Counted from the stretch's first letter, positions 34,881 through 59,940 are shown. The stretch: DNA of 64,000 nucleotides from an uncultured Thermoleophilia bacterium (GCA_963715985.1 CAVQSP010000013.1:320001-384000), one strand, 5' to 3'. Program-made: numbers and translations. The notes: generated from the letters alone by a model not told the origin.

Positions 34881-34909
34881 TTCTCACCGGAGGGCGGCGG
34901 CGGTACAAT
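34881..34909 (+). promoter_or_regulatory. Putative sigma-70 promoter for riboswitch 1
   Basis: TTCTCA-17 nt-TACAAT just upstream of the aptamer. Confidence 0.5.
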
Positions 34910-34914
34910 CGGCG

Positions 34915-35020
34915 GGCGCCTCCGAGCCCCGGAGGCCTACGGGCGCAGAGCCTATGGAGCCGGGGCCGGCAGGGTACAGCGGGAAACCGCCGTGTCTCCC
35001 AGTGCGGAAAGGAGGGCGCC
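34915..35020 (+). ncRNA. Moco-family riboswitch, P3-less (Tuco-type), copy 1
   Basis: CTCCGAG..CCTA..TATGG..CAGGGT..GGAAAC..CTCCC..GGAAAGGAG; P1 3' strand contains the SD of GTG 35023. Confidence 0.85.
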
Positions 35021-35022
35021 GC

Positions 35023-36177
35023 GTGACCATCCGTACGTCCTTCGCTCCGGTGGCCTGCCTCGTCGCGCTCGCCATGCTGCTCGGTGTCGCTCCTGCGGCC
35101 CGGGCCGCGCATCGGGCTGTCTCCACGTACGGGGAGGGCACGGCAGCCGCGCCGTTCTCTCTGGTGCCGCCGGTGGATCAGGCGTTCTCCCTCGGGCCGC
35201 CGGCCGACCAGTCGATCAGCCTCGCGATCCCCGTGCAGGGGGAGCTGCCCTTCACGGCCGTCGCCACCTCCCGCCCCCTGGACATGGGCAAGCCCACGCA
35301 GGACAAGGAGTTCCTCAGCTTGACCTGGCTCGCCACCAAGCCGCGCGGGACCGTGCTGTTCGTCAGCTACAGCGTGGACGGCGGCGCCTGGCTGCCGGCC
35401 GTGGGGGGCGTCGGGTACGACATCCCCGAAGGCACGCACGGCCGCACCATCGCCTACAGGATCACGTTGACGACGGGCGATTCCTCGCAGACGCCGGTGG
35501 TCGAGGAGCTCGCGATCGAGTGGACGCGGTGGACGGGAAAGCCCACCGACCCGCCGCCGGGCGGCGGGGGCGGCACCAGCCATCAGCCCGGCGCCGACCA
35601 CAAGCCGGGCAGCGGCAGCTACACGTACCCCGACTCTGGCGGTGACTCGGCCTCCTCGGCGGGCGGCTCGGGCAGCAGCGGCACCTCGGGGACGAGCGGC
35701 GGCTACTCCGGTGGCGGTTCCGGTGGCGGCTCGGGGACGGGCGGTGGCTCGGGGTCCGGCGGCGGCTCCGGAGGGTCCGGGGCGGGTGTCGTGAACAGCA
35801 CGACGACGGACGTTCCGCCGCAGACCACCACTGCGCCGGCTGTGACCGTGCCTTCCCCGCCGGTGCTGTCGGCGCCGGTGGGCACCCCAGCAGCGGTGAG
35901 CGGCCTCCCCGTCAGCGGCGAAGACGGCCGTCATCGGGCGTCCCGCTGGAACCGTCCGGCGGTACCGCCGCCCTCGGTGGTGAGGCGCGGCCAGACCCCG
36001 GCCGCAGCCGCCGGCCACCGCGACTTCCCCGTGCTGCCGGTCACCGGGGTGGTCTCCGGCCTCGTCGTCGCGGTCTTCGTGCCGTGGATGCTCATGGCGG
36101 CGCGGCTGCGCCGCATCACCGGCGCCGACCTTGAGAACGCCCGCCTGCTCGGCCCGTTCTGGCCGCTCGGACACTGA
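35023..36177 (+). CDS. Secreted, C-terminally anchored surface protein (beta-rich domain, Gly/Ser linker)
   Basis: Signal peptide ending APAARAA; YSVDGG..IAYRITLTT..TPVV; GSGG repeats; C-terminal TM; possible compensating indels ~35920-36010. Confidence 0.75.
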   Translation: MTIRTSFAPVACLVALAMLLGVAPAARAAHRAVSTYGEGTAAAPFSLVPPVDQAFSLGPPADQSISLAIPVQGELPFTAVATSRPLDMGKPTQDKEFLSLTWLATKPRGTVLFVSYSVDGGAWLPAVGGVGYDIPEGTHGRTIAYRITLTTGDSSQTPVVEELAIEWTRWTGKPTDPPPGGGGGTSHQPGADHKPGSGSYTYPDSGGDSASSAGGSGSSGTSGTSGGYSGGGSGGGSGTGGGSGSGGGSGGSGAGVVNSTTTDVPPQTTTAPAVTVPSPPVLSAPVGTPAAVSGLPVSGEDGRHRASRWNRPAVPPPSVVRRGQTPAAAAGHRDFPVLPVTGVVSGLVVAVFVPWMLMAARLRRITGADLENARLLGPFWPLGH

Positions 36178-36195
36178 CCGCAGACTCGCCGTGCC

Positions 36196-36659
36196 TCAGA
36201 GCCCGGTCTTGATGTCCTCGCGCGCGGTGACGGTCATGGTTGCGGTGCCGGCGCGATCCTCGATCAGTCCCGGTGACCGTGACGAGCTGGCCGTCGTAGT
36301 AGGTGGCCGGGTCGGCCGGGAACTTCGCCAGCGCTTCTTTGGGGATGACGACCACGAAGCGGGACGGGTCGCTCTCCGGCCCGCCCACGTTGAGCACCAC
36401 GCCTCCGGCGCCGTCGTCGCCGGTGCTCGTGACGGGGCCCTGCACCGTCAGCTCCTCCCCCATGCGAGACGACGCCTCGCTCCAGCTGATCGGCCCGTTG
36501 GACTCGAGCGGGCCGGGCGTCACGGTCCCGGCGGGGACCACGCTGTCGGACGACGAGCAGGCGGCCAGGGACAGGGCGGCGAGCGCCACGGCGGCGATGC
36601 TGAGCGTGATGCGGGCGGCAGGCGCGCCCACGGCGTGCAGGCCCGGCAGGTGGTCTCAT
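36196..36659 (-). CDS. OB-fold-like lipoprotein, apparent frameshift(s)
   Basis: Lipobox LAAC; LTVQGPV, VVLNVG, YDGQLVTVTG; tail IEDRAGTATMTV...TGL* in another frame. Confidence 0.65.
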
Positions 36660-36670
36660 GTCGACCTCTC

Positions 36671-37829
36671 TCACTGGACTGCCGCTCCACCTCGTCGAGG
36701 GAGCAGCTGGATGGCGGTGGCCTTGATGGCGGCGTACACGCGCTGGCCGGCAGCCACGTCGAGCTCCTCGCAGGCGGCGCGCGTCAGCAGGGCGTCGATG
36801 CGGTGCGCACCCCACTGCAGGGCGACGATGCGCGAGCGGCCGGCAGGCCGAACGTCACGCACCGTGACCGCGAGCACGTTGCGCAGGCTGGTGCCGCGCG
36901 TGTCGGGCGGCGCGAGGAAGAGCATCACGTCGTCGGGGCGGATGCAGGCCACGGCCGGACCGGGCTCGGCGTCGGCACACACCAGGGTCGCGCCGTCGGC
37001 CAGGACGAGGCGCGTGCCTCCGCCCTCGTCGACCTCGACCGTGCCCTCGAGCCAGACGTCGACGCCGAGGTAGTCGGCCACCACCTGCGAGGCCGGGTTG
37101 TTGAAGACGTCGGTGGGGGCGCCCTCCTGCACCACGGCGCCCTCGGCGAGGAACGTGACCCGCTGCGCTACCGCCAGCGCCTCCTCGGTGTCGTGGGTCA
37201 CCCACAGCACCGCCGTGGAGAGTCTCTGGAAGATGACCTCGAGGTCGGCGAGCAGGCCGCGGCGGGTGGGCGGGTCCAGCGACGCCATCGGCTCGTCGAG
37301 AAAGACGACGGCGGGGTCGACGGCGAGGGCGCGCGCGATGCTCACGCGCTGGGCCTCCCCGCCGGAGAGGCCGGCGCGACGCCGGTCGGCGAGCTGCTCG
37401 ATGCCGAGCATCTCGAGGGCGGCGTCGCACCGCCGCTTGCAGCTCGTCGCCGCCCACGCCGCGGATGCGCAGCCCGCTCTCCACGTTGCCGCGCACCGTG
37501 GTCGCGAGCAGGTAGGCCTGCTGGAACACGGCGGAGGTGTGGCGGCGCAGGCGCAGCCGGTCGCCGCCGCTGCGCACCGGCGACCCGTCGAACACGAGCT
37601 CGCCGTCCGCCTTCTCGAGCCCGTTGAGGGCCCGCATCAGCGTCGTCTTGCCGGCGCCGTTGGGCCCGAGCAGCACGTGGACGTCGCCGCGGGACAGGGC
37701 GAAGCGGTCGACGTGGACGAGAGTGCGGCCGCCGCGGACCACGCTGAGGTCGCGCGCCTCGATGATGGCCCCGCCCGCACGCGGTGCCGCGACTCCGCCC
37801 GCGCTCAGGCCGTCGCCACCTGAGGTCAC
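36671..37829 (-). CDS. tupC: Tungstate ABC transporter ATPase with TOBE domain, apparent frameshift ~37430
   Basis: GPNGAGKTT, LSGGEAQR, FLDEP, TSLRNVL TOBE tail; follows tupB. Confidence 0.85.
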
Positions 37830-38530
37830 GCGCGCGACCTCGCTCCGGCCTGCTGGATGAGCGTCATGGCGTAGTTCGTGGTGAACGAGAGGATCATGAG
37901 CACCACCGCCAGGGCGACCGCGGAGGCGAAGAGGCCCATGCTCACGTCGGTGACGATGCCGGTGGTGAGCACCTCCGTCTGCCCGATGATGTTGCCGCCC
38001 ACCATGAGCACGGCCCCGACCTCCGAGATCACCCCGCCGAAGGCCGCCATCACGGCGGCCATGAGCGGGACGCGGATCTCGCGCATGAGCAGGAGGAAGG
38101 TCCGCCAGCGGCCGGCGCCCAGCGCCATGATCTGCAGACGGAAGCCCGGGTCGAGCTGCTGCAGGGCGGCCAGGGAGAGGCCCGCCACGATCGGGAGTGC
38201 GATGAACACCTGCGCGATGATCATCGCCTGCAGCGTGTACATGAGGTGCAGGTCGCCGAGCGGGCCGGTGCGCCAGAGGAAGAGGGCGACGATGAGTCCG
38301 ACCACCACCGGCGGCACGCCCATGCCGGTGTTGATGACGGCCACCACGAAGCGGCGGCCGGGGAAGTGCGAGAGGGCGATGGCGGTGCCCATGGGCACCC
38401 CGACAACGAGTGAGACGGCCAGCGCGGCCGCCGAGACCTCGAGAGAGCGGAGGGCGATCTCGTAGGTCGTGGAGTCGCCGCTGAACAGCAGGCGGATGGC
38501 CTCCCACACGCCCTGGAGTATGAAGTGCAT
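37826..38530 (-). CDS. tupB: Tungstate ABC transporter permease
   Basis: NTGMGVPPVVVGL, GPLG..L.YT..AMIIAQ, FG..ISEVGA...VGGNI...T.VLTT. Confidence 0.9.
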   Translation of the reverse strand: MHFILQGVWEAIRLLFSGDSTTYEIALRSLEVSAAALAVSLVVGVPMGTAIALSHFPGRRFVVAVINTGMGVPPVVVGLIVALFLWRTGPLGDLHLMYTLQAMIIAQVFIALPIVAGLSLAALQQLDPGFRLQIMALGAGRWRTFLLLMREIRVPLMAAVMAAFGGVISEVGAVLMVGGNIIGQTEVLTTGIVTDVSMGLFASAVALAVVLMILSFTTNYAMTLIQQAGARSRA

Positions 38531-38579
38531 GGCGGGTCCTCCCGAGGCGGAGCCTGCAGCGTCCGCAGGAGCTTACCAA

Positions 38580-38613
38580 ACCGCCCCGCCGGGCCTTGGC
38601 CCGGCGGGGCGGT
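38580..38613 (-). terminator. Perfect inverted repeat between tupA and tupB
   Basis: ACCGCCCCGCCGGGCC-TT-GGCCCGGCGGGGCGGT, followed by TT on the minus strand. Confidence 0.6.
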
Positions 38614-38655: not shown

Positions 38656-39603
38656 TCAGAACTGCGCGGAGATGGTGAACGCGTTGGGGTAGAACAGCGG
38701 CTGCTTGTACTGCAGCTTGCCGTAGTCCCCGATCGCCTTCTGCCCGTCATAGCTGACGAGGTAGGCGGCCATCCACTCGGCGGCCGTCGAGTTGACCTGC
38801 TCATGCATCTGCTGGTTGAGAAGCAGCACGGAGTACTGGTTCTTGAGGTCCTCCGTCTTGGTGAGGACCTTGACCAGCGGCGCAAGCGTGCTCTTGTTCT
38901 TCAGCCAGGTGGCCGTGTCGGTGAGGGTGTAGGCGCCCTTCTCGGCGGTCACCTGGAGGCAGGGCAGCATGCCGCCGGCGGCAGTGATGTACCAGGCGCC
39001 GGTCGGGGCGACGGCGGCCGACGGCGTCACGCCGGCGTCGTACCAGAGCTGCAGCTCCTTCTTGTTGGTGCCCGAGGCGTCGCCGCGGGAGACGAAGGCG
39101 ACCTTGCCGGCGGCCAGCTTGTCGCCGTACCTGGCGATGCGCTTGAAAGCGTCGCTGGCCGACTTGGCCTTGCCCACCTTCGCGGGGTCACCCTTGGGGC
39201 CGACGATGGTGAAGTAGTTGTAGCCCCACGGCATGCGGATGGTGGCCACACCGTCCGCGAGCAGCTGCTTCTCGTCGGCCGGCGAGTGCACGATGATCAC
39301 GTCGGCGAGACCGTCGCGCGCCGCCTGGATGGCCTGGCCGGAACCCGTGTAGATGGGGTTCACGGTGATGCCGGGGTGCAGTGCGTTGTAGGCCGGCAGC
39401 ACGACGTCCTGCATGAGGCCGGAGTCGCGCACGCTGGTGGTGCTGTAGAGAACGAGTTTGGTGTAGTCGGGCGCCGCCTTGCCGGCGGTGTGGCCGCTGC
39501 CGGCGGCGATGCTGGTGCCGACGAGCGCGGCCAGGGCGAGTGCGACGATGGCGAACACGAGCAGCGTGCGCCTGGCGATCCGCGAACCTGTTGAACCGGA
39601 CAT
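38656..39603 (-). CDS. tupA: Tungstate-binding protein
   Basis: STTSVRDSGL (TTTS-like), GSGQA, VHSP, SRGDASGT, YTLTD.ATW, L.NQY. Confidence 0.9.
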   Translation of the reverse strand: MSGSTGSRIARRTLLVFAIVALALAALVGTSIAAGSGHTAGKAAPDYTKLVLYSTTSVRDSGLMQDVVLPAYNALHPGITVNPIYTGSGQAIQAARDGLADVIIVHSPADEKQLLADGVATIRMPWGYNYFTIVGPKGDPAKVGKAKSASDAFKRIARYGDKLAAGKVAFVSRGDASGTNKKELQLWYDAGVTPSAAVAPTGAWYITAAGGMLPCLQVTAEKGAYTLTDTATWLKNKSTLAPLVKVLTKTEDLKNQYSVLLLNQQMHEQVNSTAAEWMAAYLVSYDGQKAIGDYGKLQYKQPLFYPNAFTISAQF

Positions 39604-39746
39604 GGTGCCTCCTCAGGCGGGGGTCAGTGCCGCTTCGAACGCGGGAGCCCGGCGGTCGGTTCGCTTCGTGCCCCGGCGGCAGAGTGCTGCGGAGGTCGTC
39701 TGTCGCTCACGGGGGGAGAGTGGGGCACAGCCCGCAGCGCGGGCCC

Positions 39747-39847
39747 CTCTTCTTTCCACGATGGGAGACACGGCCGTTTCCAGCTGTACCCTGCCGGCGC
39801 GGGCTCCGTAGGCACACCGTGCCCGTAGGACTCCCGCACTCGAAGAG
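39747..39847 (-). ncRNA. Moco-family riboswitch, P3-less (Tuco-type), copy 2
   Basis: Minus strand CTCTTCGAG..CCTA..TACGG..CAGGGTACAGCTGGAAACGGCCGTGTCTCCCATCGTGGAAAGAAGAG; upstream of tupA. Confidence 0.85.
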
Positions 39848-40020
39848 ATTGGCAGACAGTAGACGAGCGGCCCGGCCGGGGTCAACCGGGCGAGTTCCAT
39901 TCTGGCTGGGCGCGCACTCCGATCCCCCGTTGTGCGCGCCAGCCTGTCCAATGCCCACAGGCCGACTTGGGACATGGCGACCTTGTGCGGCTGCGCACAT
40001 GACGAGTAGACTGGGTCGGC

Positions 40021-40118
40021 TTCTCCGAGTCCCGGATGCCTAAGGGCTGCGGCCTATGGCGCCGGGACCGGAAGGGTACAGCGGGAAACCGCCGTGTCTC
40101 CCAGTGCGGAAAGGAGAG
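40021..40118 (+). ncRNA. Moco-family riboswitch, P3-less (Tuco-type), copy 3
   Basis: CTCCGAG..CCTAAG..TATGG..AGGGTACAGCGGGAAACCGCCGTGTCTCCCAGTGCGGAAAGGAGAG; TAGACT -10 at 40007. Confidence 0.87.
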
Positions 40119-40130
40119 CGCGCTTCGCCG

Positions 40131-40158
40131 GGCCTTTCCGCGTGCGGAAGGGCCTTTT
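40131..40158 (+). terminator. Putative riboswitch expression-platform terminator
   Basis: GGCCTTTCCG-CGTG-CGGAAGGGCC-TTTT. Confidence 0.6.
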
Positions 40159-40326
40159 CGTGTGCCTGCCGCCACGCGGAAGCGGCTGCTCGACGAGGAG
40201 CCGTGGCCGACGGGCCCGGCACCTCACGGCGAGGCTCCTTCGAGCCAGCCGCCCTGACGATACGGCGTCCTTCTTCCCCCTCGCCCGTGAAGCGCCGGAA
40301 AGGACACCACGGGGAGGAGTGGGACC

Positions 40327-41906
40327 ATGAGGAGAAGACTGATCGTGGCTGCCGTGGGCGCGGTGGCCCTCATCCTGCTGATGGCGGCGCCGGCGTTCGC
40401 CAGGCACGACGCGGCTTCGGCAGAGCCCTTCGGCTGGGATCTTCAGCTGCGCAACACCGTGTCGACGCAGTACGACGCCGACATGACGTACGCGGCCTTC
40501 ACCACCTGGGCCGCCGCCCACCAGGTGACGATCGTCGACACCAACAAGACCCCGAACGACACGAGCGACGACACCACGTACAAGGGCGTCGCGCTCAAGA
40601 CGCTGGTCGGCTACTTCGATGACCAGGACCCCGCCACGTTCAACGCGGCCCTGGCCACCGGCGGCTACAACGTCGTCGTCGCCGGGCATGGACGGGTTCA
40701 CCGCCACCTTCGCGAGCGCGGACGTCGCGAGCCTCGGCGACAAGGCCATCGTCGCCAACCTCGCCAACGACGCGCCGCTCCCGGTGCCGAAAGCGACGCT
40801 CAGCAACGGTGCGGCGAGCTGGAAGCCCAGCTGGCCACTCAAGGTCGTGAGCAACGAGTCCAGCGTGACCGGCAAGATGAAGCCCGGTGGCGTCGTGCGC
40901 GTGAGCATCGTGGCGGCGGTGGCGCCGGCGGCGTCCACCGAGCCGTTCGGATGGGACCTGCAGCTGCGTAACACCATGACCAAGAAGTACGGCGCCGACA
41001 TGACCTACAAGCAGTGGGCCGCATGGGCCGCCAAGGCCGGCCGCGCGGTGACCATCACCGACAGCACCGTACCGACCGCCACCATCGCCTACAAGGGCGT
41101 CGCCCTCAAGACCCTCGTCGGCTACTTCGACGACAAGGACCGCAGCACGTTCAGCAAGGCCCTGGCCAAGAAGGGCTACTACGTCACTATCCTCGGCATG
41201 GACGGCTTCTCCGAGACGTTCGCGGCCGCCGACATCGCCCAGCTCGGCAAGAAGGTGATCGTCGCGAGCCTGGGCAACGACGCCCCACTGCCCGTGCCCA
41301 AGCCGTTCATCAACAGCGACGGGCAGCCGCAATGGGTCCCGGACTGGCCGCTGCGCGTGGTCAGCAACGTCCCCGCCGTCGGCGTCGACACCAAGACGCA
41401 GGGGATCGTGCGCATCAGCATCGTGAAGAAGTCGCCGGCGGGCCTGGCCCCCTTTTGACGGGGGGCGAGCGACTCACCGGGGCGGCTGGACGCTGACGCT
41501 GCGCGGCAAGACGAAGAAGGTGCTGCCCTGGGCCAAGGTGCCGGCGAAGGTCGCCTGGCACGGCGAGAAGGCCGGCAACATCAACCCGTCGCTGCGCTAC
41601 GTGTACCGAGGCCAGACGCTGTACAAGCTGGTCGGCCTCGTCGACGGCGGCGGAAGCTCGTTCAACGTCGCCCGGGCGAAGAAGGGCTACACGATCCAGT
41701 TCGTCTGCCGGGACGGCTACAAGCCCAAGATCCCGAGCAAGTGGATCGTCGGCAAGAAGACGTGGGTCGTGGCCAAGCTGAAGTCCGGCAAGCCGCTGGA
41801 GGGTGACGAAGCACCGTTCCGCTTCGTCGGCGGCAAGCCGATCACGCAGCCGTTCAACAACAAGCTGTCGGCCTACGGGGTCGTCGAGATCCGGCTCATC
41901 TTCTGA
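40327..41906 (+). CDS. Secreted protein with three repeats of a molybdopterin-oxidoreductase-like domain; split by frameshifts at ~40685 and ~41455
   Basis: Signal peptide (APAFA); repeats EPFGWDLQLRNT..YKGVALKTLVGYFDD..GY.V...GMDGF..WPL.VVS; third unit WTLTLRG..LYKLVGLVDG..DGY..PFRFVG may be a separate gene. Confidence 0.7.
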
Positions 41907-42043: not shown

Positions 42044-43084
42044 ATGAAGAGGACGAGCATGTGGGCAGGCCTCGTGGCCGCCGTGGTGGCCGCAGCGGTC
42101 GTGCTGGCCGGCGTGGCGGTGCCGGGCGGCACGCCGCAGGCGGCTGCCGCCGACCCGGTGGTGCTCACAGTCACCGGCAACGGCCAGACGAAGACCTTCA
42201 CCATGGCGGAGCTCCAGGCGCTCCCCGCCTATACGGGGTGGTCAGGCTACGTGAACAGCGCCGGCACGGTCACGCCGCCCTGGCCCGTCAAGGGTGTCAA
42301 GGTGACCGACCTTCTGGCGACCGTGGGCGGCATCCCCGAGCTGCAGTCCGTGGACGTGACGGCCAGCGACGACTACGGCATGACCTTGACGTACGACGAA
42401 GCCGTCAACGGCAACATCACCGTCTACGACGCGACGACCAAGAAGGAGGAGCAGCCCGAAGCTCCCGTGTCGATGGTGCTCGTGTACGAGGAGAGCGGGG
42501 CCCCCATCGCGCCGTCGCCCGCGGGTGACGGCCCCTTGCGCCTCGCGGTCTGCCAGCCCACGAACGTCAACCAAATCGCGGACGGGCACCTGTTCGTCAA
42601 GTGGGTCGACCGCATCGGCCTGCGCGACGCCGTCGTGCCGTGGGACGTCAAGATGTACGGTCTCAAGGACAAGAGGGGCAAGCGGCAGACCTACACGCTG
42701 GATCGCAAGACGTACGATTCCTGTGCGACGCCCGGGTGTCACGGCTCCGCCTGGACCGACCCGGCGACGCAGAAGACGTGGACCGGCGTGCCCCTCTTCC
42801 TCTGCATCGGCAAGGTGGACGGCGGCAAGGGTCACGGCGGCTACGGCGCCTACAACGAGGCGCTGGCGCTCAAGGGCTACCGGATCAAGCTCACGTCGGC
42901 GACCGGGGCGACGGCGATCATCGGCTCGCGCACCATCCGCAACGACGACAGGATAGTCCTCGCAAACAAGCTGATGGGTTCTGAGCTGGGACCGGACTAC
43001 TACCCGCTGAGGCTGATGGGGCCGAAGATCGGCAGCAAGAGCTTCGTCGGCCAGATCACCAAGATCCAGCTGTTGCCCAAGTGA
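42044..43084 (+). CDS. Secreted two-domain molybdopterin-oxidoreductase-like protein with CATPGCH motif
   Basis: Sec signal; FTMAELQALP, GVKVTDLL, ASDDY, DGPLRL, VKWV; second domain WTGVPL..YNEALA..PLRL. Confidence 0.8.
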   Translation: MKRTSMWAGLVAAVVAAAVVLAGVAVPGGTPQAAAADPVVLTVTGNGQTKTFTMAELQALPAYTGWSGYVNSAGTVTPPWPVKGVKVTDLLATVGGIPELQSVDVTASDDYGMTLTYDEAVNGNITVYDATTKKEEQPEAPVSMVLVYEESGAPIAPSPAGDGPLRLAVCQPTNVNQIADGHLFVKWVDRIGLRDAVVPWDVKMYGLKDKRGKRQTYTLDRKTYDSCATPGCHGSAWTDPATQKTWTGVPLFLCIGKVDGGKGHGGYGAYNEALALKGYRIKLTSATGATAIIGSRTIRNDDRIVLANKLMGSELGPDYYPLRLMGPKIGSKSFVGQITKIQLLPK

Positions 43085-43151: not shown

Positions 43152-44172
43152 GTGAGGTCCCGGGTCCTCACGGTGACCGCGTGGCTGTTCGCGCTCGCCG
43201 GGCTGGCCGCCCTGGCCGCCTGCGGCGGCCAGGGCGGCTCCTCCGGATCGCCGTCCCCATCCGTCAGCCCCTCAGGCCCCGTCGTGCTCACAGTCGTGGG
43301 TGAGAAGGGCCAGAAGCAGTTCACGATGAACGAGCTCCAGGCGCTCCCGGCCTACACCGGCTACGCGGGGTTCAAGAGCAGCACCGGCGTCATCACGCTG
43401 CCCGAGGAGTACACCGGCGTCTCGTTGATCTCCCTCGCCGACCTGGTCGGTGGCATCAGCAAGGCGAACGGCGTGACCATCGTGGCCAAGGACGGCTACG
43501 GCATGACGTTCTCGTACGGGCAGATCGTGGACCACACCTTCACGGCCTACGACCCCGCCACCGGGGACGAGGTGACGCCGTCCAAGGACCTCACCGTCAT
43601 CGTCGCCTACGACCGCAAGAGCAAGCCCCTGGGGGAGGACGAAGGGCCTCTGCGTCTTGATGGTCGCGACGCCGGACCCGGGCGGACAGATCGTGGACGG
43701 CCACTGGACGGTCAAGTGGCTCGACCGCGTCTCGGTGACCAAGGCGTCGGCGGAGTGGAAGGTCCAGCTCGAGGGGGTCATCCCGGGCAAGCTGGACAAA
43801 CCCAGCTACGTCAACTGCGCTTCCCCGGGCTGCCATGGCTCGGGATGGGTGGATAGCGCCGGCACGCGCTGGGAGGGCATCCCGCTGTATCTGGTGGCCG
43901 GGATGCTGGACGACAAGCAGAAGCACGGCGCCGGGGCGTACAACGAGAAGCTGGCGCGCAAGGGCTACGACATCCTCATCGAGACCGCCGACGGCAAGGT
44001 GGTCACCATCGACTCGCGCGACATCGCCGGCAAGGACGACGTGGTCCTTGCCGGGAAGGTGGACGGCGGCGAGCTCTCCGAGGACTACTTCCCGCTGCGG
44101 CTCGTGGGCCCGGGCCTGAGCGAGGACCAGATGCCCGGGCGCATCGCGCGCATCGTCGTGCGGCCGAGGTAG
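43152..44172 (+). CDS. Lipoprotein paralog with CASPGCH motif, apparent frameshift ~43655
   Basis: Lipobox LAAC; FTMNELQALP, AKDGY, EGPLRL|MV, VKWL, WEGIPL, YNEKLA, FPLRLVG. Confidence 0.8.
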
Positions 44173-44182: not shown

Positions 44183-45295
44183 GTGGCCGGAGGCTGGCGC
44201 TCGCGCAGACCATGGGGCCGGCGTGCACGGATCTGCGGCGTTGCGGCGGCGCTCCTCGCCGCGCTGGCGCTCGCCGTGGCGGCGCCGGCCTGCGGCGGCG
44301 ACCACCGGCAGGTGAGGATCATCGAGGCCGGCAGTCTCATCGTGCCGTTCGCCGACGTCGCCGCTGCCTTCGAGCGCGAGCACCCCGGCGTGGAGGTCGT
44401 CACCGAGAGCCACGGCAGCATCCAGGTGCTGCGTCACATCTCGGAGCTCGGCGACCGCATGGACCTGGCGGCGAGCGCCGACGAGCTGCTCATCCCGCCG
44501 CTGCTCTACGACCGCGACGACCCGGACACCGGTGCGCCCTTCGCCTCCTGGTACTGCTCCTTCGCGACCAACCGCATGGTGCTGGCGGTCTCGCCCGAGA
44601 GCCCTTTGGCCGGCGAGCTCACAGCGGAGAACTGGTACCGGCGCCTGACTGAGCCGGACGTGCGCTTCGGCCTCGCCGACCCGCGCTTCGACGCGGCCGG
44701 CTACCGTGCGCTGATGGTGCTGCAGCTGGCGGAGCGGGCCTACGACGACCCGTACCTCTTCGAGGATCTGCTGATGGGCAAGTTCACGGCGCCGATCACG
44801 GTGGAGCGACGGGGCCGCACCCAGGTCATCGAGGTGCCGGAGATCCTGGAGACCAGCTCCGGGTCGAACGTCCTGCTGCGCGGGGCCAGTATCCAGCTGG
44901 TGGCACTGCTCGAGTCGGGCGACCTGGACTGCGCCTTCGAGTACGAGAGCGTCGCCCGCCAGCACGGACTCGAGTTCGTGGAGCTGCCGGGGTCCGTCGA
45001 CCTCGGCGATCCGGCGCAGCGAAGCGTCTACCGGACGGTCGAGGTCAAGCTCGACTTCCGCCGCTTCGCCAGCGTGCGGCCGGTGTTCCGCGGGGACGTC
45101 ATCCGCTACGCCTTCACCATCCCCGCGAACGCACCGGACCCTGCCCTGGCGGCGGAGTTCGCCGCCTTCCTGCTCGGCCCCGAGGGACGCCGGATCATGC
45201 TCGCCGACCACCAGCCACTTCTCACCCCGCCGGAGCTCGACCACCCGGCGGCCGCGCCCGAGGAGGTGAGGCGGGCGTGCGCGGGGTCCCGGTGA
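44183..45295 (+). CDS. wtpA: WtpA-type tungstate/molybdate-binding lipoprotein
   Basis: AGSL..PF, ESHGS, ASAD, FATNRMVLA, DP..D..GYRA, AFEYESVA.QH.L, I.YAFTIP. Confidence 0.82.
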   Translation: MAGGWRSRRPWGRRARICGVAAALLAALALAVAAPACGGDHRQVRIIEAGSLIVPFADVAAAFEREHPGVEVVTESHGSIQVLRHISELGDRMDLAASADELLIPPLLYDRDDPDTGAPFASWYCSFATNRMVLAVSPESPLAGELTAENWYRRLTEPDVRFGLADPRFDAAGYRALMVLQLAERAYDDPYLFEDLLMGKFTAPITVERRGRTQVIEVPEILETSSGSNVLLRGASIQLVALLESGDLDCAFEYESVARQHGLEFVELPGSVDLGDPAQRSVYRTVEVKLDFRRFASVRPVFRGDVIRYAFTIPANAPDPALAAEFAAFLLGPEGRRIMLADHQPLLTPPELDHPAAAPEEVRRACAGSR

Positions 45296-46170
45296 GCGTT
45301 CTCAGGGATCACAGGCACCCCCTTCGTTTCCGGGCCCCGCGCACGCCCGCCCCGCCGGCACTGATGCTGGGCCGGCGTCCATCGCGGTTCTGGGCGCTCT
45401 GCGCCGTCGCCGGCGCGCTGCTCATCGCCTTCGTTGTGCTGCCGGCGGCGAGCATGATCGTGGGCGCCGGGGCCGGCCTGCTCGGCGAGGCGCTCCGCCA
45501 GGACGACGTGCGGCGCTCGCTGTGGCTGACGGTGAGCGCCGCCGCCATCGCCACGGCCATCGCCTTCGTCGTCGGCGTGCCGCTCGCCTACCTTCTGGCG
45601 CGCCGTGACTTCCCCGGCAAGCGGGTCGTGGAGGGCATCATCGACCTGCCGATCGTGTTCCCTCACACCGCCGCCGGCGTCGCCCTGCTCACCGTGTACG
45701 GGCGCGAGGGCATCGTGGGGCGCGCGCTGGCGCCGCTCGGCATCACCTTCACCGACACGGTGGCCGGCATCGTGCTGGCCATGCTGTTCGTGAGCCTGCC
45801 CTTCCTCGTGGACACCGCCCGCGAGACCTTCGCCCTCGTCGACGAGCGGTACGAGCACGTGGCCCGCACGCTCGGCTCGTCGCGCGGCGGCGCCTTCGTG
45901 CGCGTCACGTTCCCCCAGGCCTGGCGCGGCGTGCTGTCGGGCGCCGTGCTCATGTGGGGCCGCGGCATCAGCGAGTTCGGCGCCGTCGTGATCCTCGCCT
46001 ACAACCCCAAGGTCATCTCCGTGCTGACCTTCGAGCGCTTCGAGGGCTTCGGGCTGCGGGCGGCGCAGCCGCCCGCCGTGCTCATCGTCATCGTCGCCTT
46101 CCTCGTGTTCCTGGTGCTGCGCGCCGTCCTGCTGCCGCGTCGCGGCCGCTCCCGTAAGGACGTCGTGTGA
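45292..46170 (+). CDS. wtpB: Tungstate/molybdate ABC permease
   Basis: DLPIVFPHTAAGVALL, LAMLFVSLPF, ARTLG, ISEFGAVVILAY; start uncertain. Confidence 0.8.
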   Translation: MSVLRDHRHPLRFRAPRTPAPPALMLGRRPSRFWALCAVAGALLIAFVVLPAASMIVGAGAGLLGEALRQDDVRRSLWLTVSAAAIATAIAFVVGVPLAYLLARRDFPGKRVVEGIIDLPIVFPHTAAGVALLTVYGREGIVGRALAPLGITFTDTVAGIVLAMLFVSLPFLVDTARETFALVDERYEHVARTLGSSRGGAFVRVTFPQAWRGVLSGAVLMWGRGISEFGAVVILAYNPKVISVLTFERFEGFGLRAAQPPAVLIVIVAFLVFLVLRAVLLPRRGRSRKDVV

Positions 46171-48628: not shown

Positions 48629-49144
48629 ATGACGACACCCGGCAGGGACGACCTCAGCCACCTCGACGAGCGCGGGCGCGCGCGCATGGTGGACGTGGGC
48701 GGCAAGGACGAGACCGAGCGCGTAGCGTGCGCCGAAGCGCTCGTCGTCATGGCCCCGGCCACCCTCCGGCTCATCGCCGACGGCGCCGTGCCCAAGGGCG
48801 ACGTGTTCGCCACGGCGCGCCTGGCCGGCATCATGGCCGCCAAGCGCACGCACGAGCTCATCCCTCTCTGCCACCAGCTGAACCTCACCGCCGTGCACGT
48901 GGAGATCGAGGCGGATCCGGACCTGCCCGGCCTGCGCGTGACCACCGAGGCACGGCTCCGCGGCCGCACCGGCGTGGAGATGGAGGCGCTGGTGGCGGCC
49001 TCAGTGGCCGCTCTCACCGTGTACGACATGTGCAAGGCCGTGGACAGGGGCATGGAGCTGCGCGCCGTCCGGCTGCTGGCCAAGAGCGGCGGCCGCAGCG
49101 GCACCTGGCAGCGGGCGGACGGCGACGAGAAGAGCGAGGACTGA
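48629..49144 (+). CDS. moaC: cPMP synthase
   Basis: [33 protein letters not shown]. Confidence 0.96.
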
Positions 49145-49146: not shown

Positions 49147-50115
49147 ATGACCGACTACAAGGTGGACGGGTACATCGTCTCCGTCAACGTGGCCGACTCC
49201 AAAGGCGTGCGCAAGGACCCGGTGGAGTCCATCACGCTGGTCGTGGACCACGGCGTGGAGGGCGATGCGCACGCCGGCCCGTGGCACCGCCAGGTGAGCC
49301 TGCTCGCGCAGGAGAGCATCGACAAGATGCTCGCCGCCTGCCCCAGCGTCGATCCGGGCGCCTTCGGCGAGAACATCACGACTCGCGGCATCGTGCCCTA
49401 CGAACTGCCCGTCGGGGCCCGCTTCTACGCCGGTGAGACACTGCTGGAGGTGACGCAGATCGGCAAGGAGTGCCACGACCGCTGCGCCATCTTCCACCAG
49501 GCCGGCGACTGCGTGATGCCGCGGGAGGGCATCTTCGCCAGGGTGATCGAGGGCGGCGAGATCTACCCCGGCAACGGCATCGTCTTCCTTCAGGCGAGCC
49601 TCATCGTGGCGGCCGTGCTCACCATCAGCGACAAGGGCTCGCGCGGAGAGCGCGAAGACACCAGCGGCGACGCCCTCGAGGAGGCGCTCAAGGCTCTCGG
49701 CGTCGCCTCGGTGGAGCGCGCCGTGGTCCCCGACGAGCAGGACCTCATCGCCGGGGAGCTCAGGCGCTGGGCCGACGAGACCGCGGTCAACCTGATCCTC
49801 ACCACCGGGGGCACCGGCATGACCACCCGCGACGTGACGCCGGAGGCCACGATGACGGTGCTCGAGCGCCAGGCGCCCGGGTTCGCCGAGGCCATGCGCG
49901 CCGGCTCGCTGGCGGTCACGCCCCACGCCATGATCTCGCGCGCCGTGAGCGGCACACGCGGGCGCACGCTCATCATCAACATGCCGGGCAGCCCCGGCGC
50001 CTGCCGTGACCAGTTCAAGATCATCGCCCCGGCCCTGCCGCACGCGGTGGAGAAGCTGGCCGACCGGGGCGGCGACTGCGCTCCGGCCCCGCCGCCGCGC
50101 GTTTCGCAGAGCTGA
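49147..50115 (+). CDS. mog: MOSC-domain / molybdopterin adenylyltransferase (MogA/MoaB) fusion
   Basis: N-terminal GDAHAG.WHRQVSLL, QIGKECH..C; C-terminal TISD, TTGGTG..RDVTPEA, NMPGSP. Confidence 0.85.
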   Translation: MTDYKVDGYIVSVNVADSKGVRKDPVESITLVVDHGVEGDAHAGPWHRQVSLLAQESIDKMLAACPSVDPGAFGENITTRGIVPYELPVGARFYAGETLLEVTQIGKECHDRCAIFHQAGDCVMPREGIFARVIEGGEIYPGNGIVFLQASLIVAAVLTISDKGSRGEREDTSGDALEEALKALGVASVERAVVPDEQDLIAGELRRWADETAVNLILTTGGTGMTTRDVTPEATMTVLERQAPGFAEAMRAGSLAVTPHAMISRAVSGTRGRTLIINMPGSPGACRDQFKIIAPALPHAVEKLADRGGDCAPAPPPRVSQS

Positions 50116-53414: not shown

Positions 53415-53425
53415 CGGAGGAGCCC

Positions 53426-54139
53426 GTGCCGCTCGAGATCGAGGTCGAGGGTCTGCGCAAGACGTTCGGCCGCCGCGAAGTGCTGAAGGGCCTCTCCTTC
53501 AGCGTCGAGCGCGGCGGCTTTCTGAGCATCTTCGGACCCAACGGGGCCGGCAAGACCACCACGCTGCGCGTGCTCGCCACGCTGCTCACGGCGAGCGGGG
53601 GCAGCGTCAAGGTCGCCGGTCACGACGTCCGCAACGACCCCATGCCGGTCCGCTCCACCATCGGCCTGATCTCGCACACCCCGATGCTGTACCCGGACCT
53701 CACTGCCGACGAGAACCTCAGGTTCTACGCCGACATGTACGGCCTGCAGGACCGCGAGGCGCGCATCAGCGACCTCCTCGAACGCCTCGAGCTCAGCCAC
53801 CGCCGCCACGACGTGGTGCGCACCTACAGCAAGGGCATGCGCCAGCGGCTCGCCATCGCGCGCGCCGTGCTCCACCGCCCGCGCGTGCTTCTGCTCGACG
53901 AGCCGCACTCCGGCCTCGACCCGCGCGCCGTGGACATCTTCGACGGCCTGCTCGCGGAGATCCGCGACGAGCACACCTTCGTGATGGTGACCCACAACAT
54001 CGCCAAGGGCCTGGACTGGGGCACCGAGCTCATGATCATCGAGAACGGCCGCATCGCCTACCAGCACGCCGCCGGCGTGGATCACGACGCCTTCAGCGCC
54101 GTGTACCGCGAGCACGTCCGCGACGGGAGCGTGGTGTGA
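53426..54139 (+). CDS. ccmA: Heme exporter ATPase
   Basis: GPNGAGKTT, YSKGMRQR, LLDEP. Confidence 0.9.
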   Translation: MPLEIEVEGLRKTFGRREVLKGLSFSVERGGFLSIFGPNGAGKTTTLRVLATLLTASGGSVKVAGHDVRNDPMPVRSTIGLISHTPMLYPDLTADENLRFYADMYGLQDREARISDLLERLELSHRRHDVVRTYSKGMRQRLAIARAVLHRPRVLLLDEPHSGLDPRAVDIFDGLLAEIRDEHTFVMVTHNIAKGLDWGTELMIIENGRIAYQHAAGVDHDAFSAVYREHVRDGSVV

Positions 54140-56558: not shown

Positions 56559-56561
56559 GGC

Positions 56562-58083
56562 GTGCTCGTCGTCGTCACCGGCATCTCGCACAAGACCGCC
56601 TCGCTCGAGCTGCGCGAGCGCCTTGCGTTGGACGAGGCCGAGTCGCTGAATCTGGCGCAGGAGCTGCTGGAGAGCGGCGTGGCCTGCGAGGCCGTCGCGC
56701 TCAGCACCTGCAACCGCACAGAGCTCTACGTGTACGCGCCGGATTCTCTGGCGGCGCGCCACGCTTGCGTGGCTGCTCTGGCGCACCACGCCGGCGTGCC
56801 GGGTCGCCGAGCTCGAGCCGAGTCTGTACAGCTACTCCGGGGACGGCGCCATCAGCCACCTGTTCCGCGTCACCTCGAGCCTGGACTCCATGGTGGTCGG
56901 CGAGGCGCAGATCGTCGCGCAGATGAAGGGCGCCTACCAGCTCGCCTGCGAGGGCGGTTGCACCAGCGTGGTCTTCAACCGCCTGTTCCGCCACGCCCTC
57001 GAGGTGGGCAAGCGGGTGCGCACCGAGACCACGATCGGCGAGCGGCCGGTGAGCGTCAGCTCCGCGGCCGTCGAGCTGGCCCTGCAGGTGTTCGGCAAGC
57101 TCAAGGACCACACCGTGCTCATCGTCGGCGCGGGAGAGACCAGCGAGCTCACGGCCGTCCACCTCAAGGCCCAGGGCATCGAGCGCATCCTCGTGACCAA
57201 CCGCACCTTCGAGACCTCTGTGGAGCTCGCGCGTCGCGTGGGCGGTGAGGCGGCGCACTTCCGCGACCTCGAGGAGCACCTGACTGCAGCGGACATCGTC
57301 ATCAGCTCCACCTCGGCGCCGCACTACGTCATCACCCGTGAGGTGGTGGAGCGGGCGCTCAAGCATCGCCGCAAGCGCCCCATCTTCTTCATCGACATCG
57401 CCGTGCCGCGCGACCTGGACCCCGAGATCAACCGCGTCAGGAACGCCTACCTGTACGACATCGACGACCTGCAGCACGTGGTGGAGCACAACCGCCACGA
57501 GCGTGAGAAGGACGCCCAGCATGCGGAGCGCATCGTCGGCGAGGAGCTGGGCAGCGTGAACGACTGGCTGCGCAGCCTCGAAGTGGTGCCGACCATCGCC
57601 ACCCTCCGCGAGGCCGTGGAGGGCATCCGCAAGAGCGAGCTCGAGCGGCTGAGCAACAAGCTCACCGGACTGACCGAGGAGCAGCGCGCCCAGGTGGAGA
57701 TGCTCACGGCGAGCATCGTGAACAAGATCCTGCACATGCCCACGGTCAAGATGAAGGAGGCCGCGGGCCGCAGCGAGTGCTACCTGTACGTGGATGCGGT
57801 GCGGACGCTGTTCGACCTCTCGGGCGGCGGCAGCGAAGAGGACGCCGCGGCCGGAGACGGCAGCGGGGCGGGCGCGAGCAGCAGCGGCGCCGCGGGCAAG
57901 GGGTCCGGTGGCGACGACGCCGCGGTGAACGGCGCCGGGCACACCGGGGACGTGGCAGCGCCGCCGGCGGAGCCCGCTGCGGCTCCCGAGGCGGCGCCGG
58001 CCACCGGCCGCGACGGCGTCGACGTCGCCGCCACCGGCGCCACCGTCCACCAGCTGCGCGGCACGGGCACGGGGCGCGCGTGA
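56562..58083 (+). CDS. hemA: Glutamyl-tRNA reductase, apparent frameshift ~56800
   Basis: GISHKTA..LRE, STCNRTE, SLDSMVVGEAQI, GAGE, DIAVPRD; long Ala/Gly-rich tail. Confidence 0.93.
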
Positions 58084-59084
58084 ATAGCCGCCGAAGTCCA
58101 GCTATCGAGCGGGACACCGAAGGGGTACCGCTCCGCGACGTCCTGCGCATCGGCTCGCGCGGCAGCAGGCTCGCCCTCATCCAGAGCGAGTGGGTGCGCG
58201 ACCAGCTGATGCGCCTGCACCCAGGGCTGCACGTGGAGATCGAGGTCATCCAGACCAAGGGCGACAAGCTCCTCGACGCCCCGCTGGCCAAGATCGGCGA
58301 CAAGGGACTGTTCACCAAGGAGCTCGAGTCCGCGATGCTGGAGGGGCGCACCGACCTGGCCGTGCACTCCGCCAAGGACATGCCGACCGAGGTGCCCGAC
58401 GGCCTCGCGATCGTCGCCTTCACGGCTCGCGAGGACGTGCACGATGCGTTCGTGGCCGGCCCGCAGGGCCGGCCCCCAGGCGTCTCTGCGATCCCCGAGG
58501 GCGCCGTGATCGGCACCTCCAGTCTGCGGCGCCGCTCGCAGCTGCTGGCCCTGCGCCCGGACCTCCAGCTTGTCGATATCCGCGGCAACGTGCAGACGCG
58601 CCTGCGCAAGCTCGAAGAGCAAGACCTGGCCGGCACCATCCTGGCGGCGGCCGGCCTCGCGCGGCTGCGGCAGCCGGAGCTGGCGGCCTTCGCCTTCTCG
58701 TTCCAGCAGATGCTGCCCGCCGTAGGCCAGGGCTCTCTGGCCATCGAGGCGCGCGCCGACGACGCGCGCGTGGCCGCACTGGTCATGCCGCTCGTGCACG
58801 AGCCGACCAGTCTGGCCGTGCGCGCGGAGCGCGGCCTGATGCACGCCCTCGAGGGCGGCTGTCAGGTGCCCATCGCGGCGTACGCCGAAGTCTCGCGCGT
58901 GCCCGGCGACCTCAGTCTCGAACAGCTCCGCCTGCGCGCCTTCGTCGGCTCGCTCGATGGCACCGACACCGTGCGCGGCGAGCTGACAGGCCCGTCAGGC
59001 GCGCCCGAGGGCCTCGGGATCGCCCTGGCGGCCGACCTGCGCGCCCGCGGGGCCGACCGCATCCTGGCGCAGGTCCGCGGGTAG
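58080..59084 (+). CDS. hemC: Hydroxymethylbilane synthase
   Basis: GSRGSRLAL.Q, KGLFTKE, VHSAKD, GTSSLRR, RGNV.TRL, GGCQVP. Confidence 0.96.
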   Translation: MNSRRSPAIERDTEGVPLRDVLRIGSRGSRLALIQSEWVRDQLMRLHPGLHVEIEVIQTKGDKLLDAPLAKIGDKGLFTKELESAMLEGRTDLAVHSAKDMPTEVPDGLAIVAFTAREDVHDAFVAGPQGRPPGVSAIPEGAVIGTSSLRRRSQLLALRPDLQLVDIRGNVQTRLRKLEEQDLAGTILAAAGLARLRQPELAAFAFSFQQMLPAVGQGSLAIEARADDARVAALVMPLVHEPTSLAVRAERGLMHALEGGCQVPIAAYAEVSRVPGDLSLEQLRLRAFVGSLDGTDTVRGELTGPSGAPEGLGIALAADLRARGADRILAQVRG

Positions 59085-59091
59085 CGGCGGC

Positions 59092-59940
59092 GTGAGCGAC
59101 CGCCGCCCGCTCGCCGGCAAGACGGTGGTCGTGACCCGCCCGCGCGAGCAGGCCGCCTCGCTGGCGGAGCCGCTGCAGCACCTGGGCGCCGACGTGCTCC
59201 TCGCGCCCACCATCCGCATCCGGCCGCGACCCTGGGACGACGAGGTCGCGGCCGCCGTCGCCGGACTCGCCGGGTACAGGCTCGTGATCTTCACCAGCGT
59301 CAACGGCGTGCGGATCTTCCTCGACTACTTGGAGGCGCCGGAGGCAGCGGCCCTCCCGGGCCGGTCCGCCGGCATGGCCGCGGCGCTGCCGTCTGCGGTC
59401 ACCGTGGCGGCCGTGGGGTCGGCCACGGCGTCCGCCCTCGAGCAGCGGGGAGTGGCCTGTGACGTGGTGCCCGACGAGTTCGTCGCCGAGGGCCTCGTGG
59501 CGGAGCTCGAACGCCGCGGCGCTGCGCCTGCGGGCACACGCGTGCTGATCCCCGCGGCCCGGCGCGCCCGACCCGTGCTGCCCGACGCGCTGCGCGCGTG
59601 GGGCGCCGAGGTCGACGTGCTGGCGGTGTACGACACGGTGGCGGCCGGGTCTCTTGACGTTCCCGTGGCGCGCCTGGCCGCCGCTGACTTCATCACCTTC
59701 ACGTCGGGCAGCACGGCACGCGAGTTCGTCGCCCTTGTGAGCGATGCCCTGGCGAACGAGGCTGCCGGCGCGGCCCTGCCCCTGGCCGACATCCTCAGCG
59801 GCGTGCGCCTCTGCTCCATCGGTCCGGCCACCAGCGCCGTGCTGCGTGAGCTGGGCCTTCCCGTGGCAGTCGAGGCGCCGGAACACACGGCGGCGGGCCT
59901 CGTGGCCGCTATCGCCGCCGCCGCCCTGCACCTCGCCTGA
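59092..59940 (+). CDS. hemD: Uroporphyrinogen-III synthase
   Basis: VVVTRPREQ, FTSVNGV, AVG.AT, VYDT, FTSGST, SIGPAT. Confidence 0.92.
   Translation: MSDRRPLAGKTVVVTRPREQAASLAEPLQHLGADVLLAPTIRIRPRPWDDEVAAAVAGLAGYRLVIFTSVNGVRIFLDYLEAPEAAALPGRSAGMAAALPSAVTVAAVGSATASALEQRGVACDVVPDEFVAEGLVAELERRGAAPAGTRVLIPAARRARPVLPDALRAWGAEVDVLAVYDTVAAGSLDVPVARLAAADFITFTSGSTAREFVALVSDALANEAAGAALPLADILSGVRLCSIGPATSAVLRELGLPVAVEAPEHTAAGLVAAIAAAALHLA

Follow-up and report, generated by a model that had tools for sequence, protein, structure and literature searches.

In riboswitches of the molybdenum cofactor (Moco) family, loss of the P3 hairpin was found to correlate with the tungsten cofactor (Tuco), as described in the available part of the study by Regulski (2008; PMC2408646), and the accessible text of a 2024 study of Eubacterium limosum assumes the same link (PMC11725836). 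The former source also mentions two P3-less RNAs of S. wolfei that precede genes for 'putative sulphite oxidases'; these were left as an unexplained exception, and possible Tuco use by the proteins encoded behind such RNAs was left open. The sulfite oxidase (SUOX) fold itself has a described member without catalytic equipment: PruR, according to the portion of its description available (PMC11194511), shows this fold without the Mo-cysteine, is exported by the Sec route and accommodates a small pterin in what is a truncated Moco site. Here we describe a locus of an uncultured Thermoleophilia bacterium in which P3-less RNAs of this family stand before genes for secreted SUOX-fold proteins, which are followed in turn by a tungstate-type WtpABC importer. 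The locus occupies positions 34881–59940 of a stretch of 64,000 nucleotides (nt), hereafter the window (G000:C13:320001-384000; 71% G+C), and the source genome (G000) comprises 4.35 Mb in 22 contigs, with a completeness of 88.8% and a contamination of 7.3%.

Gene identities were assigned by searches with Pfam and NCBIfam profiles, and RNAs were identified with Rfam covariance models. At the centre of the locus three consecutive plus-strand genes, g1 (40327–41906), g2 (42044–43084) and g3 (43152–44172), code for secreted proteins. The product of g2 is an intact two-domain protein of 346 amino acids (aa), which starts with MKRTS and carries an N-terminal signal or anchor. Its paralogue g3 is a lipoprotein (lipobox LAAC) with a reading frame broken by an extra base at 43655, and g1 consists of three SUOX/PruR-like repeats, with an extra base near 40686 (in a GGG run) and a +1 junction at 41450–41459. 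A first search with g2 retrieved 194 homologues, most of them labelled PF00174 or 'YedYZ catalytic subunit'; PF00174 is carried by most close homologues and by 10/10 representatives. Searching an atlas of proteins with g2 gave sub-threshold leads only (0.88, PF00174 clusters). The AlphaFold2 (AF2) model of g2, with a predicted local distance difference test (pLDDT) score of 80.7, shows two beta-rich domains, and its best Foldseek matches in the PDB are structures of PruR (7kom, 7kp2, 7rkb and 7kos; E-values of 2.7e-6 to 6.5e-4, TM 0.65–0.73 of the target), followed by SoxC, SorT, the Thermus sulfite dehydrogenase and YedY (2e-5 to 2.5e-3). By its predicted structure g2 has the SUOX fold, and hhalign matched repeats of g1 to domain 2 of g2 with probabilities of 68% and 94%. 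The molybdopterin-domain fold that a preliminary description of this DNA had assigned to the secreted proteins is thus borne out by the PF00174 labels of the homologues, by the AF2 model and by Foldseek.

Domain 2 of g2 contains the invariant residues Cys227, Pro230, Cys232, His233 and Gly234, and the corresponding motif S-C-x-x-P-G-C-H-G, which is CX4CH-like, is found in 23/23 sequences of the close clade. In the wider family the first Cys is mostly Gly and only the second, with the His, is retained (Cys-His in 74 of the 80 distant loci); CX4CH is present in 4 of the 80 distant homologues and in 29 of 150 representatives, so that it cannot be regarded as a feature of the family as a whole. 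Neither domain 1 nor g1 has Cys-His, the third repeat of g1 displays Trp-His-Gly where g2 has Cys-His-Gly, and no CXXCH is present in g2 or g3. In terms of linear position, the Cys-His pair lies 10–24 residues before a WxGxPL strand, which is about where SUOX enzymes carry the Mo-cysteine. Export signals of the homologues were scored by regular expressions only: among 73 complete N-termini of distant homologues 42 have a lipobox-like signal and a single one has an RRx-hydrophobic motif. The homologues therefore appear to carry Sec or lipoprotein signals rather than Tat signals, which speaks against a cofactor-loaded enzyme. The superfamily is far wider than the Wtp-linked branch, with 1216 clusters at E ≤ 0.001, and surface proteins of very large size (up to 3139 aa; e.g. 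P0153, P0170 and P0236) contain 4–9 copies of the same module, some of these proteins having PKD domains and lacking Cys-His.

Downstream of g3, and on the same strand, lie wtpA for a tungstate-type substrate-binding protein (44183–45295; 268 bits with TIGR03730, above the cut-off of 242.75), wtpB for a permease (45277–46170; BPD_transp_1) and wtpC for an ATPase (46167–47230), the C-terminal TOBE domain of which is shifted to the +2 frame through extra bases at 46927 and 46955. The WtpC model NF040840 matches with 246 bits, below its cut-off of 440. By these profiles, with WtpA above the equivalog cut-off and followed by a permease and an ATPase, the three genes constitute a WtpABC importer. 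A set of 26 related loci, mostly from metagenome-assembled genomes labelled Thermoleophilia, was compared with the window, each locus being judged as far as its sequence reaches. The order g1-g2-g3-wtpABC-moaA-moaC-MOSC/mogA recurs across them, and an RF01055 RNA of 119–125 nt precedes g1 in 14/14 of the loci tested. In 4 of those 14 a second RNA stands before moaA, and g1–g3 with wtpABC are therefore the tightest unit.

In order to see how far this arrangement extends, a distant set of 80 metagenomic loci was collected with a peptide pattern derived from distant family members only; their proteins share 27–41% identity with g2 and the loci range from 35 to 75% in G+C content. Among the 46 distant loci with at least 1.5 kb of downstream sequence, 40 have a homologue of wtpA directly downstream on the same strand, with a median gap of 152 nt, and all ten of ten such downstream binding proteins passed the WtpA equivalog cut-off. 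One AT-rich group displays the order riboswitch-wtpB-partner-wtpA. RF01055 RNAs are present in 32 of the 80 loci, in 29 of them within 3.5 kb upstream of the homologue; of the 31 loci whose upstream sequence exceeds 3 kb, 18 have such an RNA there. The named sources of homologues include Dehalogenimonas sp. THU2 (P0174), Dehalococcoidales, Dehalococcoidia, Anaerolineales, Bipolaricaulota and Bathyarchaeota. On gene order the g2/g3 family is thus a widespread genetic partner of WtpA-type transporters, and this neighbourhood survey, which the preliminary description had proposed, revealed a linkage to tungsten (W) and molybdenum (Mo) uptake far wider than could be known from the window. As a separate observation, the SUOX-fold gene is flanked by two WtpA genes in many distant loci (L055, L056, L061, L063, L065, L066, L069-L073, L078, L085 and L122), the upstream copy scoring above the downstream one (about 393–408 vs 314 bits on NF003196).

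Exactly three RF01055 matches are found in the window by Rfam, with nothing else above threshold (gathering score 36 bits), and the P3 hairpin columns are deleted in the alignments of all three. The three P3-less Moco-family riboswitches predicted earlier are thereby confirmed, with scores of 63.6, 54.3 and 53.7 bits; they head the three units named at the time, with the correction that riboswitch 2 and the tup genes lie on the minus strand. Riboswitch 1 (34919–35015, plus strand; 54.3 bits) heads 'surf', a gene for a secreted protein, and has just upstream of it a promoter-like site, TTCTCA-17-TACAAT (34881–34909, plus strand), which is a consensus match only, one having been found against 0.4 expected. 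The 3′ strand of its P1 helix, GGAAAGGAGG, holds the Shine-Dalgarno sequence and ends seven bases ahead of the GTG (35023) with which 'surf' starts; the riboswitch reads as a translational OFF switch in which P1 would hide the ribosome-binding site. Riboswitch 2 (39734–39857, minus strand; 53.7 bits) heads tupABC and the gene for a small lipoprotein, and a clear expression platform was not seen for it. Riboswitch 3 (40011–40132, plus strand; 63.6 bits) heads the unit from g1 to MOSC/mogA and is directly followed by a terminator-like hairpin (40130–40165, plus strand; -19.8 kcal/mol), composed of an 11-bp stem and the U-tract UUUUCGUGU. The 5′ arm of this hairpin, CCUUUCC, is complementary to GGAAAGG of the aptamer, an arrangement that would make a transcriptional OFF platform.

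A fourth RF01055 RNA of the same genome, located outside the window (C13:475096-475253, minus strand), keeps P3 with an insert of 39 nt and heads modB/modC-like genes, mobB and a gene of the dimethyl sulfoxide reductase (DMSOR) family, these identities being a reading of the open reading frames (ORFs) made with no Pfam run. Within one genome, as far as such gene identities go, P3-less RNAs are associated with tup/wtp and the P3-containing RNA with mod, which matches the correlation of Regulski (2008) and the assumption made for E. limosum. By that correlation the RNAs of the window are assigned to the tungsten-cofactor-type class, their ligand preference being a prediction.

Where the cofactor would be used is suggested by the remainder of the genome. 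In the window AFOR_N, Molybdopterin and PF00174 have no match, in agreement with the earlier statement that it holds no recognisable W/Mo enzyme. Elsewhere, the genome has 13 AFOR_N matches, corresponding to about nine genes of the aldehyde:ferredoxin oxidoreductase (AOR) type, and 19 matches to the Molybdopterin family, corresponding to more than ten DMSOR-type enzyme genes; one ordinary PF00174 gene is located 17 kb before the window. The demand for a tungsten cofactor is therefore explained by these enzymes without the secreted proteins, and the proposal that the latter are its dedicated clients was not upheld. The best Molybdopterin-family match (C10:180663-181931, minus strand; L036) has one in-frame TGA in an open frame of 1489 aa and may represent a selenocysteine-containing formate dehydrogenase or a break in the assembly.

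With these data, several explanations of g2 and g3 can be weighed. The two proteins might be surface enzymes in which the conserved Cys holds a pterin cofactor with W or Mo, i.e. a tungsten-using enzyme of the SUOX fold. The fold, the Cys at about the expected linear place, co-regulation with the genes for cofactor synthesis and the Tuco use left open for the S. wolfei proteins in the available text of Regulski (2008) all suit such an enzyme. We nevertheless consider it unlikely. Periplasmic Moco enzymes are exported folded by the Tat system, while Sec or lipoprotein signals prevail here and an RR motif is seen in 1/73 homologues; an OFF switch would yield apo-enzyme exactly when the cofactor is missing; the domains are of only about 150 aa and come with no dimerisation or redox partner domain; and what is conserved next to the gene is a transporter instead of an electron carrier. 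A variant of the enzyme explanation, in which g2 and g3 are haem-c proteins (through CX4CH) matured by the adjacent Ccm system and form a W-linked redox enzyme, is highly improbable, even though CX4CH is invariant in the 23 close homologues, ccmE-ccmF follow the locus in 13/13 cases and Sec-type export would be suitable. In the wider family the first Cys is mostly Gly, as noted above (CX4CH in 4/80 loci and 29/150 representatives), and none of the 80 distant loci has ccm/hem genes. The ccm/hem genes, moreover, form a separate unit beside ribosomal protein genes, and at least ten multihaem cytochromes are available as clients of Ccm. The connection to haem c drawn in the preliminary description is not supported.

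It is unlikely that g2 and g3 are PruR-like sensors, which would recognise extracellular pterin, either free or released, and modulate the transporter or some other partner with no handling of metal. Such sensors would accord with the Foldseek ranking, in which the Sec-exported, pterin-binding PruR (as its available description has it; PMC11194511) gives the best structural matches, and with the Trp-His-Gly of the third g1 repeat, given that PruR has a Trp at the place of the Mo-cysteine. A partner of the DcpA type, with GGDEF and EAL domains, is absent, however, and the conserved neighbour is WtpA; Cys-His is kept in 74/80 loci, where PruR homologues have Trp; and regulation is already supplied by the riboswitch. 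A function unrelated to W or Mo (e.g. in cell-envelope structure or adhesion), with the secreted proteins merely sharing the transcript, appears quite unlikely. The superfamily does include huge multi-repeat surface proteins with PKD domains, and the functions of its members are all predicted, but the adjacency to wtpA holds in 40/46 loci across 35–75% G+C and at 27–41% identity, 29 loci have a Moco RNA upstream of the gene and in one lineage the gene is embedded between wtpB and wtpA.

We favour the reading that the Cys-His SUOX-fold proteins most likely provide an extracytoplasmic step of W/Mo acquisition and that the locus is a cofactor-starvation regulon, and assign to it a probability of roughly 0.55. 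It is favoured because an OFF switch suits genes for cofactor supply, because export is of the Sec/lipoprotein type and because the place beside WtpA is nearly constant. A switch that senses the finished cofactor and turns expression off should govern genes that make more of it, a role which importers and molybdopterin (MPT) synthesis fit and an apo-enzyme does not. The three P3-less riboswitches would permit expression when the metal-pterin cofactor is scarce. Scarcity would turn on the importers TupABC and WtpABC, the early steps of pterin synthesis (MoaA, MoaC and MOSC-MogA) and the extracytoplasmic g1, g2 and g3, probably together with 'surf' and the small lipoprotein. At the cell surface g2 and g3 would capture W/Mo species, probably at the Cys-His of domain 2, and then make the metal available to WtpA, while g1, with its three Cys-less repeats, would extend the surface layer; the users of the cofactor would be the cytoplasmic AOR- and DMSOR-family enzymes encoded elsewhere. 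The OFF polarity, the binding of metal and its hand-over to WtpA are steps that we infer, and the proteins may act by capturing metal at Cys-His, by converting thio-metalates or by binding a pterin as PruR does. Of the two options put forward in the preliminary description, the evidence thus favours the surface scavenging relay and not the new W-pterin/heme-c redox enzyme.

A number of observations weigh against the acquisition role. At the level of the proteins, g2 has no Pfam match at E 0.01 and the C-terminal half of g3 scores 22.4 bits with PF00174, short of the cut-off of 24. Solved SUOX enzymes give weak profile matches (E 0.006–1) that are confined to the C-terminal half of a domain, and as no alignment to a solved enzyme spans the Cys-His region, equivalence with the Mo-cysteine is tentative. 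Binding of metal or pterin is a prediction, and the OFF polarity is deduced from sequence complementarity. As regards gene order, downstream wtpA is missing in 6 of the 46 distant loci (in 2 of these six it is found upstream), and for 13 of the 31 loci in which the upstream sequence is long no riboswitch was detected. Homologues are preceded by both RNA classes, 21 P3-less and 8 with P3 (the P2–P4 junction being read by eye), and the family is therefore not tungsten-specific. In a census of Actinomycetota, in which 2 of 201 sampled genomes have WtpA above the cut-off (G174, G018, G120, G088 and G148 being counted as non-carriers), the other WtpA-positive genome has no g2 homologue in the 1.5 kb upstream of the gene; the partner is therefore optional. 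Finally, position is all that assigns 'surf' and the small lipoprotein to the proposed system, and their block is missing here in most relatives. A predicted complex of mature WtpA with mature g2 received a score of 0.00, which says nothing either way.

A more specific version of the acquisition role is put forward tentatively. The Cys-His SUOX-fold lipoproteins could be a new extracytoplasmic metal-handling component of the importer, in effect a fourth Wtp subunit, in which a fold known for holding the cofactor has been turned outward to bind W/Mo species (possibly thio- or mineral-bound and inaccessible to WtpA) and to pass them on; in this Thermoleophilia clade it would have grown into a three-gene surface relay with one member that needs a programmed +1 frameshift. 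No description of a SUOX-like Wtp partner was found in the literature searched, albeit the supplements of the Regulski and E. limosum studies and a review of the SUOX fold (PMC2415749) may mention one. What appears new with respect to the available parts of these sources is the linkage of secreted SUOX-fold proteins to WtpA, the nearest precedent being the remark on S. wolfei. In the current view a binding protein, a permease and an ATPase suffice for the uptake of W and Mo. A secreted partner, if real, would add an unstudied step, by which the supply of these metals to anaerobes from sulfidic or mineral-bound pools could be explained. Such a partner would also be the second non-enzymatic use of the sulfite oxidase fold, after PruR, and would settle the S. 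wolfei exception of the 2008 riboswitch paper. The generic labels 'molybdopterin-dependent oxidoreductase' and 'DMSO/TMAO reductase YedYZ catalytic subunit' are probably misleading for such proteins. The homologue P0174, the source of which is named Dehalogenimonas sp. THU2, might make a bench test feasible.

The reading frames of several genes in the locus are interrupted. Single-base frame changes were located, from plots of G+C content at third codon positions (GC3) and from translations, in the lipoprotein gene (~36272), tupC (~37440), g1 (~40686 and ~41455), g3 (43655), wtpC (46927 and 46955) and hemA; among the inserted bases of the window is one at about 56850. An independent check was made with contigs from four wetland metagenome runs sharing 46–48% of the sampled 31-letter words of the window. 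These have exactly one base fewer at 36272, 37440, 43655, 46927 and 46955; the base at 36272 is absent in X2, X3 and X4, that at 36620 in X2 and X3, that at 37440 in X3 and X4 and that at 43655 in one X3 contig. Almost no cover was obtained over 40312–40735, and none of the contigs was shown to bridge 41455. Insertions in the assembly account for the breaks in g1 (~40686), g3, tupC, wtpC, hemA and the lipoprotein gene, and the genes are whole in nature, since independent contigs lack the extra base at five of the sites, g3 is in one frame in most relatives and g1 is free of stops in 12; the exception is the g1 junction at ~41455. Decay of the locus was considered as a cause of the breaks and rejected: a GC3-frame scan returned 382 candidate frame breaks genome-wide (~88 per Mb), of which 287 are +1, and the contigs are without the extra base at 36272, 37440 and 43655. 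Gene calls on this genome are expected to be fragmented by single-base insertions.

The g1 junction is kept apart from the assembly errors because the same ten bases, CCC-TTT-TGA-C (in RNA CCC-UUU-UGA-C; 41450–41459, plus strand), are identical in 6/6 close genomes (the window and L001–L005), which are species-level assemblies from different projects. Here the zero frame of g1 stops, and the +1 frame continues as PFD, a variable linker of 13–14 residues and the conserved strand GWTLTL, joining repeats 2 and 3. Upstream of the conserved strand no start codon is present in the +1 frame; a later GTG is GTC in L005. In 12 relatives g1 is in one stop-free frame, and in four further loci the frame changes elsewhere in the gene. 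From its sequence the junction looks like a programmed +1 frameshift site, which, if genuine, would be a rare bacterial case outside prfB.

As for the other genes of the locus, the profiles support the presence of tup, wtp, moa, ccm and hem genes as described at first, but with g1, g3, tupC, wtpC, hemA and the lipoprotein gene broken by extra bases. The gene 'surf' (35023–36177, plus strand; GTG start) codes for a secreted, C-terminally anchored protein outside any Pfam or NCBIfam family. It consists of a signal peptide, an all-beta domain of ~170 aa, a conserved His/Gly-rich motif, a Gly/Ser linker and a transmembrane helix, and in its middle part there are indels at 35683 and 35740 relative to the independent contigs. 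The family is tiny, with five homologues in a large protein collection (P0270–P0274), and has a strictly conserved Gly/His/Pro-rich stretch, WTG.P..PP...G.SH.P...KPGSG.YTYP, after the globular domain. An AF2 model of the N-terminal domain from a six-row alignment (pLDDT 44.9) was too poor for a fold search. In one relative (L010, 7595–8593) the 'surf' homologue is placed between wtpC and moaA.

The minus-strand unit behind riboswitch 2 comprises genes for a tupA-like substrate-binding protein (38656–39603; PBP_like_2), a tupB-like permease (37826–38530; BPD_transp_1), a tupC-like ABC ATPase with a TOBE domain (36671–37829; split by an extra base near 37440, with ABC_tran positions 5–79 on one part and 93–137 together with TOBE on the other) and, downstream of tupC, the small lipoprotein (36116–36631; lipobox LAAC; frame broken by an extra base near 36272). 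The match of the binding protein to the TupA equivalog model NF041772 (139 bits, E 1.6e-40; cut-off 400) is at the family level only. The small lipoprotein, for which an OB fold had been claimed, has no Pfam or NCBIfam match. The block from 'surf' to tupA (34.7–39.9 kb) is missing from this position in most relatives, in which a homologue of the aldehyde dehydrogenase gene at 33135–34658 directly precedes the riboswitch. Among relatives the tup module is mobile: in five it lies after wtpC or before g1 (L004, L016, L018, L021 and L025), and in two it is represented by tupA alone (L001, 7012–7956; L002, 7002–7946).

Downstream of wtpC follow, on the plus strand, moaA (47656–48621; Radical_SAM and Mob_synth_C), moaC (48629–49144; profile match) and a fusion of MOSC and MoCF_biosynth domains (MOSC-MogA; ~49150–50115, with an approximate start codon). 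Beyond a gene on the opposing strand, the SatD-like character of which is weak (E 0.0016, under the cut-off), lies the next cluster, with ccmE, ccmF, ccmA (53420–54139), ccmB, ccmC, a Cytochrom_C_asm protein, hemA, hemC and hemD; ccmD had no Pfam or NCBIfam match. This cluster adjoins the S-adenosylmethionine (SAM) hydrolase gene, rplM, rpsI and glmM, and it follows the locus in all 13 close loci that reach that far and in none of the 80 distant ones. The genome contains at least ten ORFs with 4 to 23 CXXCH motifs, and the ccm/hem genes are general machinery for cytochrome c and haem since these cytochromes are there to be served; they are a conserved neighbour and not part of the system. The multihaem ORFs include C14:31109-33019, C11:511846-522033 (a cluster of five to six), C10:207602-208522, C21:47969-48652 and C9:717-2252, and the genome is thus that of a multihaem-rich member of Actinomycetota with CcmE/CcmF (System I) maturation. 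To our knowledge, most actinobacteria use System II.

Each part of the locus can be set beside a known system. The g1 junction resembles the prfB (RF2) frameshift, the stop context of which (CUU UGA C) includes the same UGA C: in both, a slippery P-site codon re-pairs in +1 (in g1 this would be tRNA-Phe on UUU U) before UGA C, and the downstream frame codes for the rest of the protein. The prfB frameshift has an upstream Shine-Dalgarno-like stimulator at a fixed short spacing, whereas G-rich runs are found by eye 8–10 nt upstream of the junction in some of the six sequences and none at the prfB spacing; moreover, g1 codes for a secreted repeat protein, with no evident link to the level of release factor. 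With PruR, g2 and g3 share small SUOX-like domains (~150 aa), Sec-type export and the absence of catalytic partner domains. PruR, however, has one domain where g2 and g3 have two and g1 has three, and carries a Trp (PW motif) at the Mo-cysteine place, where g2 and g3 have Cys-His and only the third repeat of g1 has Trp-His-Gly. PruR is also paired with the cyclase-phosphodiesterase DcpA (in Agrobacterium, Vibrio and Klebsiella), while the g2/g3 family goes with WtpABC and a Moco-family riboswitch. The SUOX molybdoenzymes (SorT, 4pw3; SoxC, 2xts; YedY/MsrP, 1xdq; plant and chicken sulfite oxidase) have in common with g2 and g3 the fold, PF00174 on most homologues and, in a comparable segment ahead of the WxGxPL strand, a conserved Cys, but differ in having the Tat signal, the dimerisation or haem domain and the longer domains that g2 and g3 lack, as well as in context, which here is that of a transporter, and the sequence matches between the two are marginal. 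Finally, the Moco/Tuco regulons described in the available parts of Regulski (2008) and of the E. limosum study (PMC11725836) resemble the present locus in placing P3-less RF01055 RNAs before tup/wtp and MPT genes, with several riboswitches per locus. Unlike in those regulons, the S. wolfei case excepted, the first regulated genes here code for secreted SUOX-fold proteins, and a Moco RNA is likewise found upstream of a homologue in 29 distant loci.

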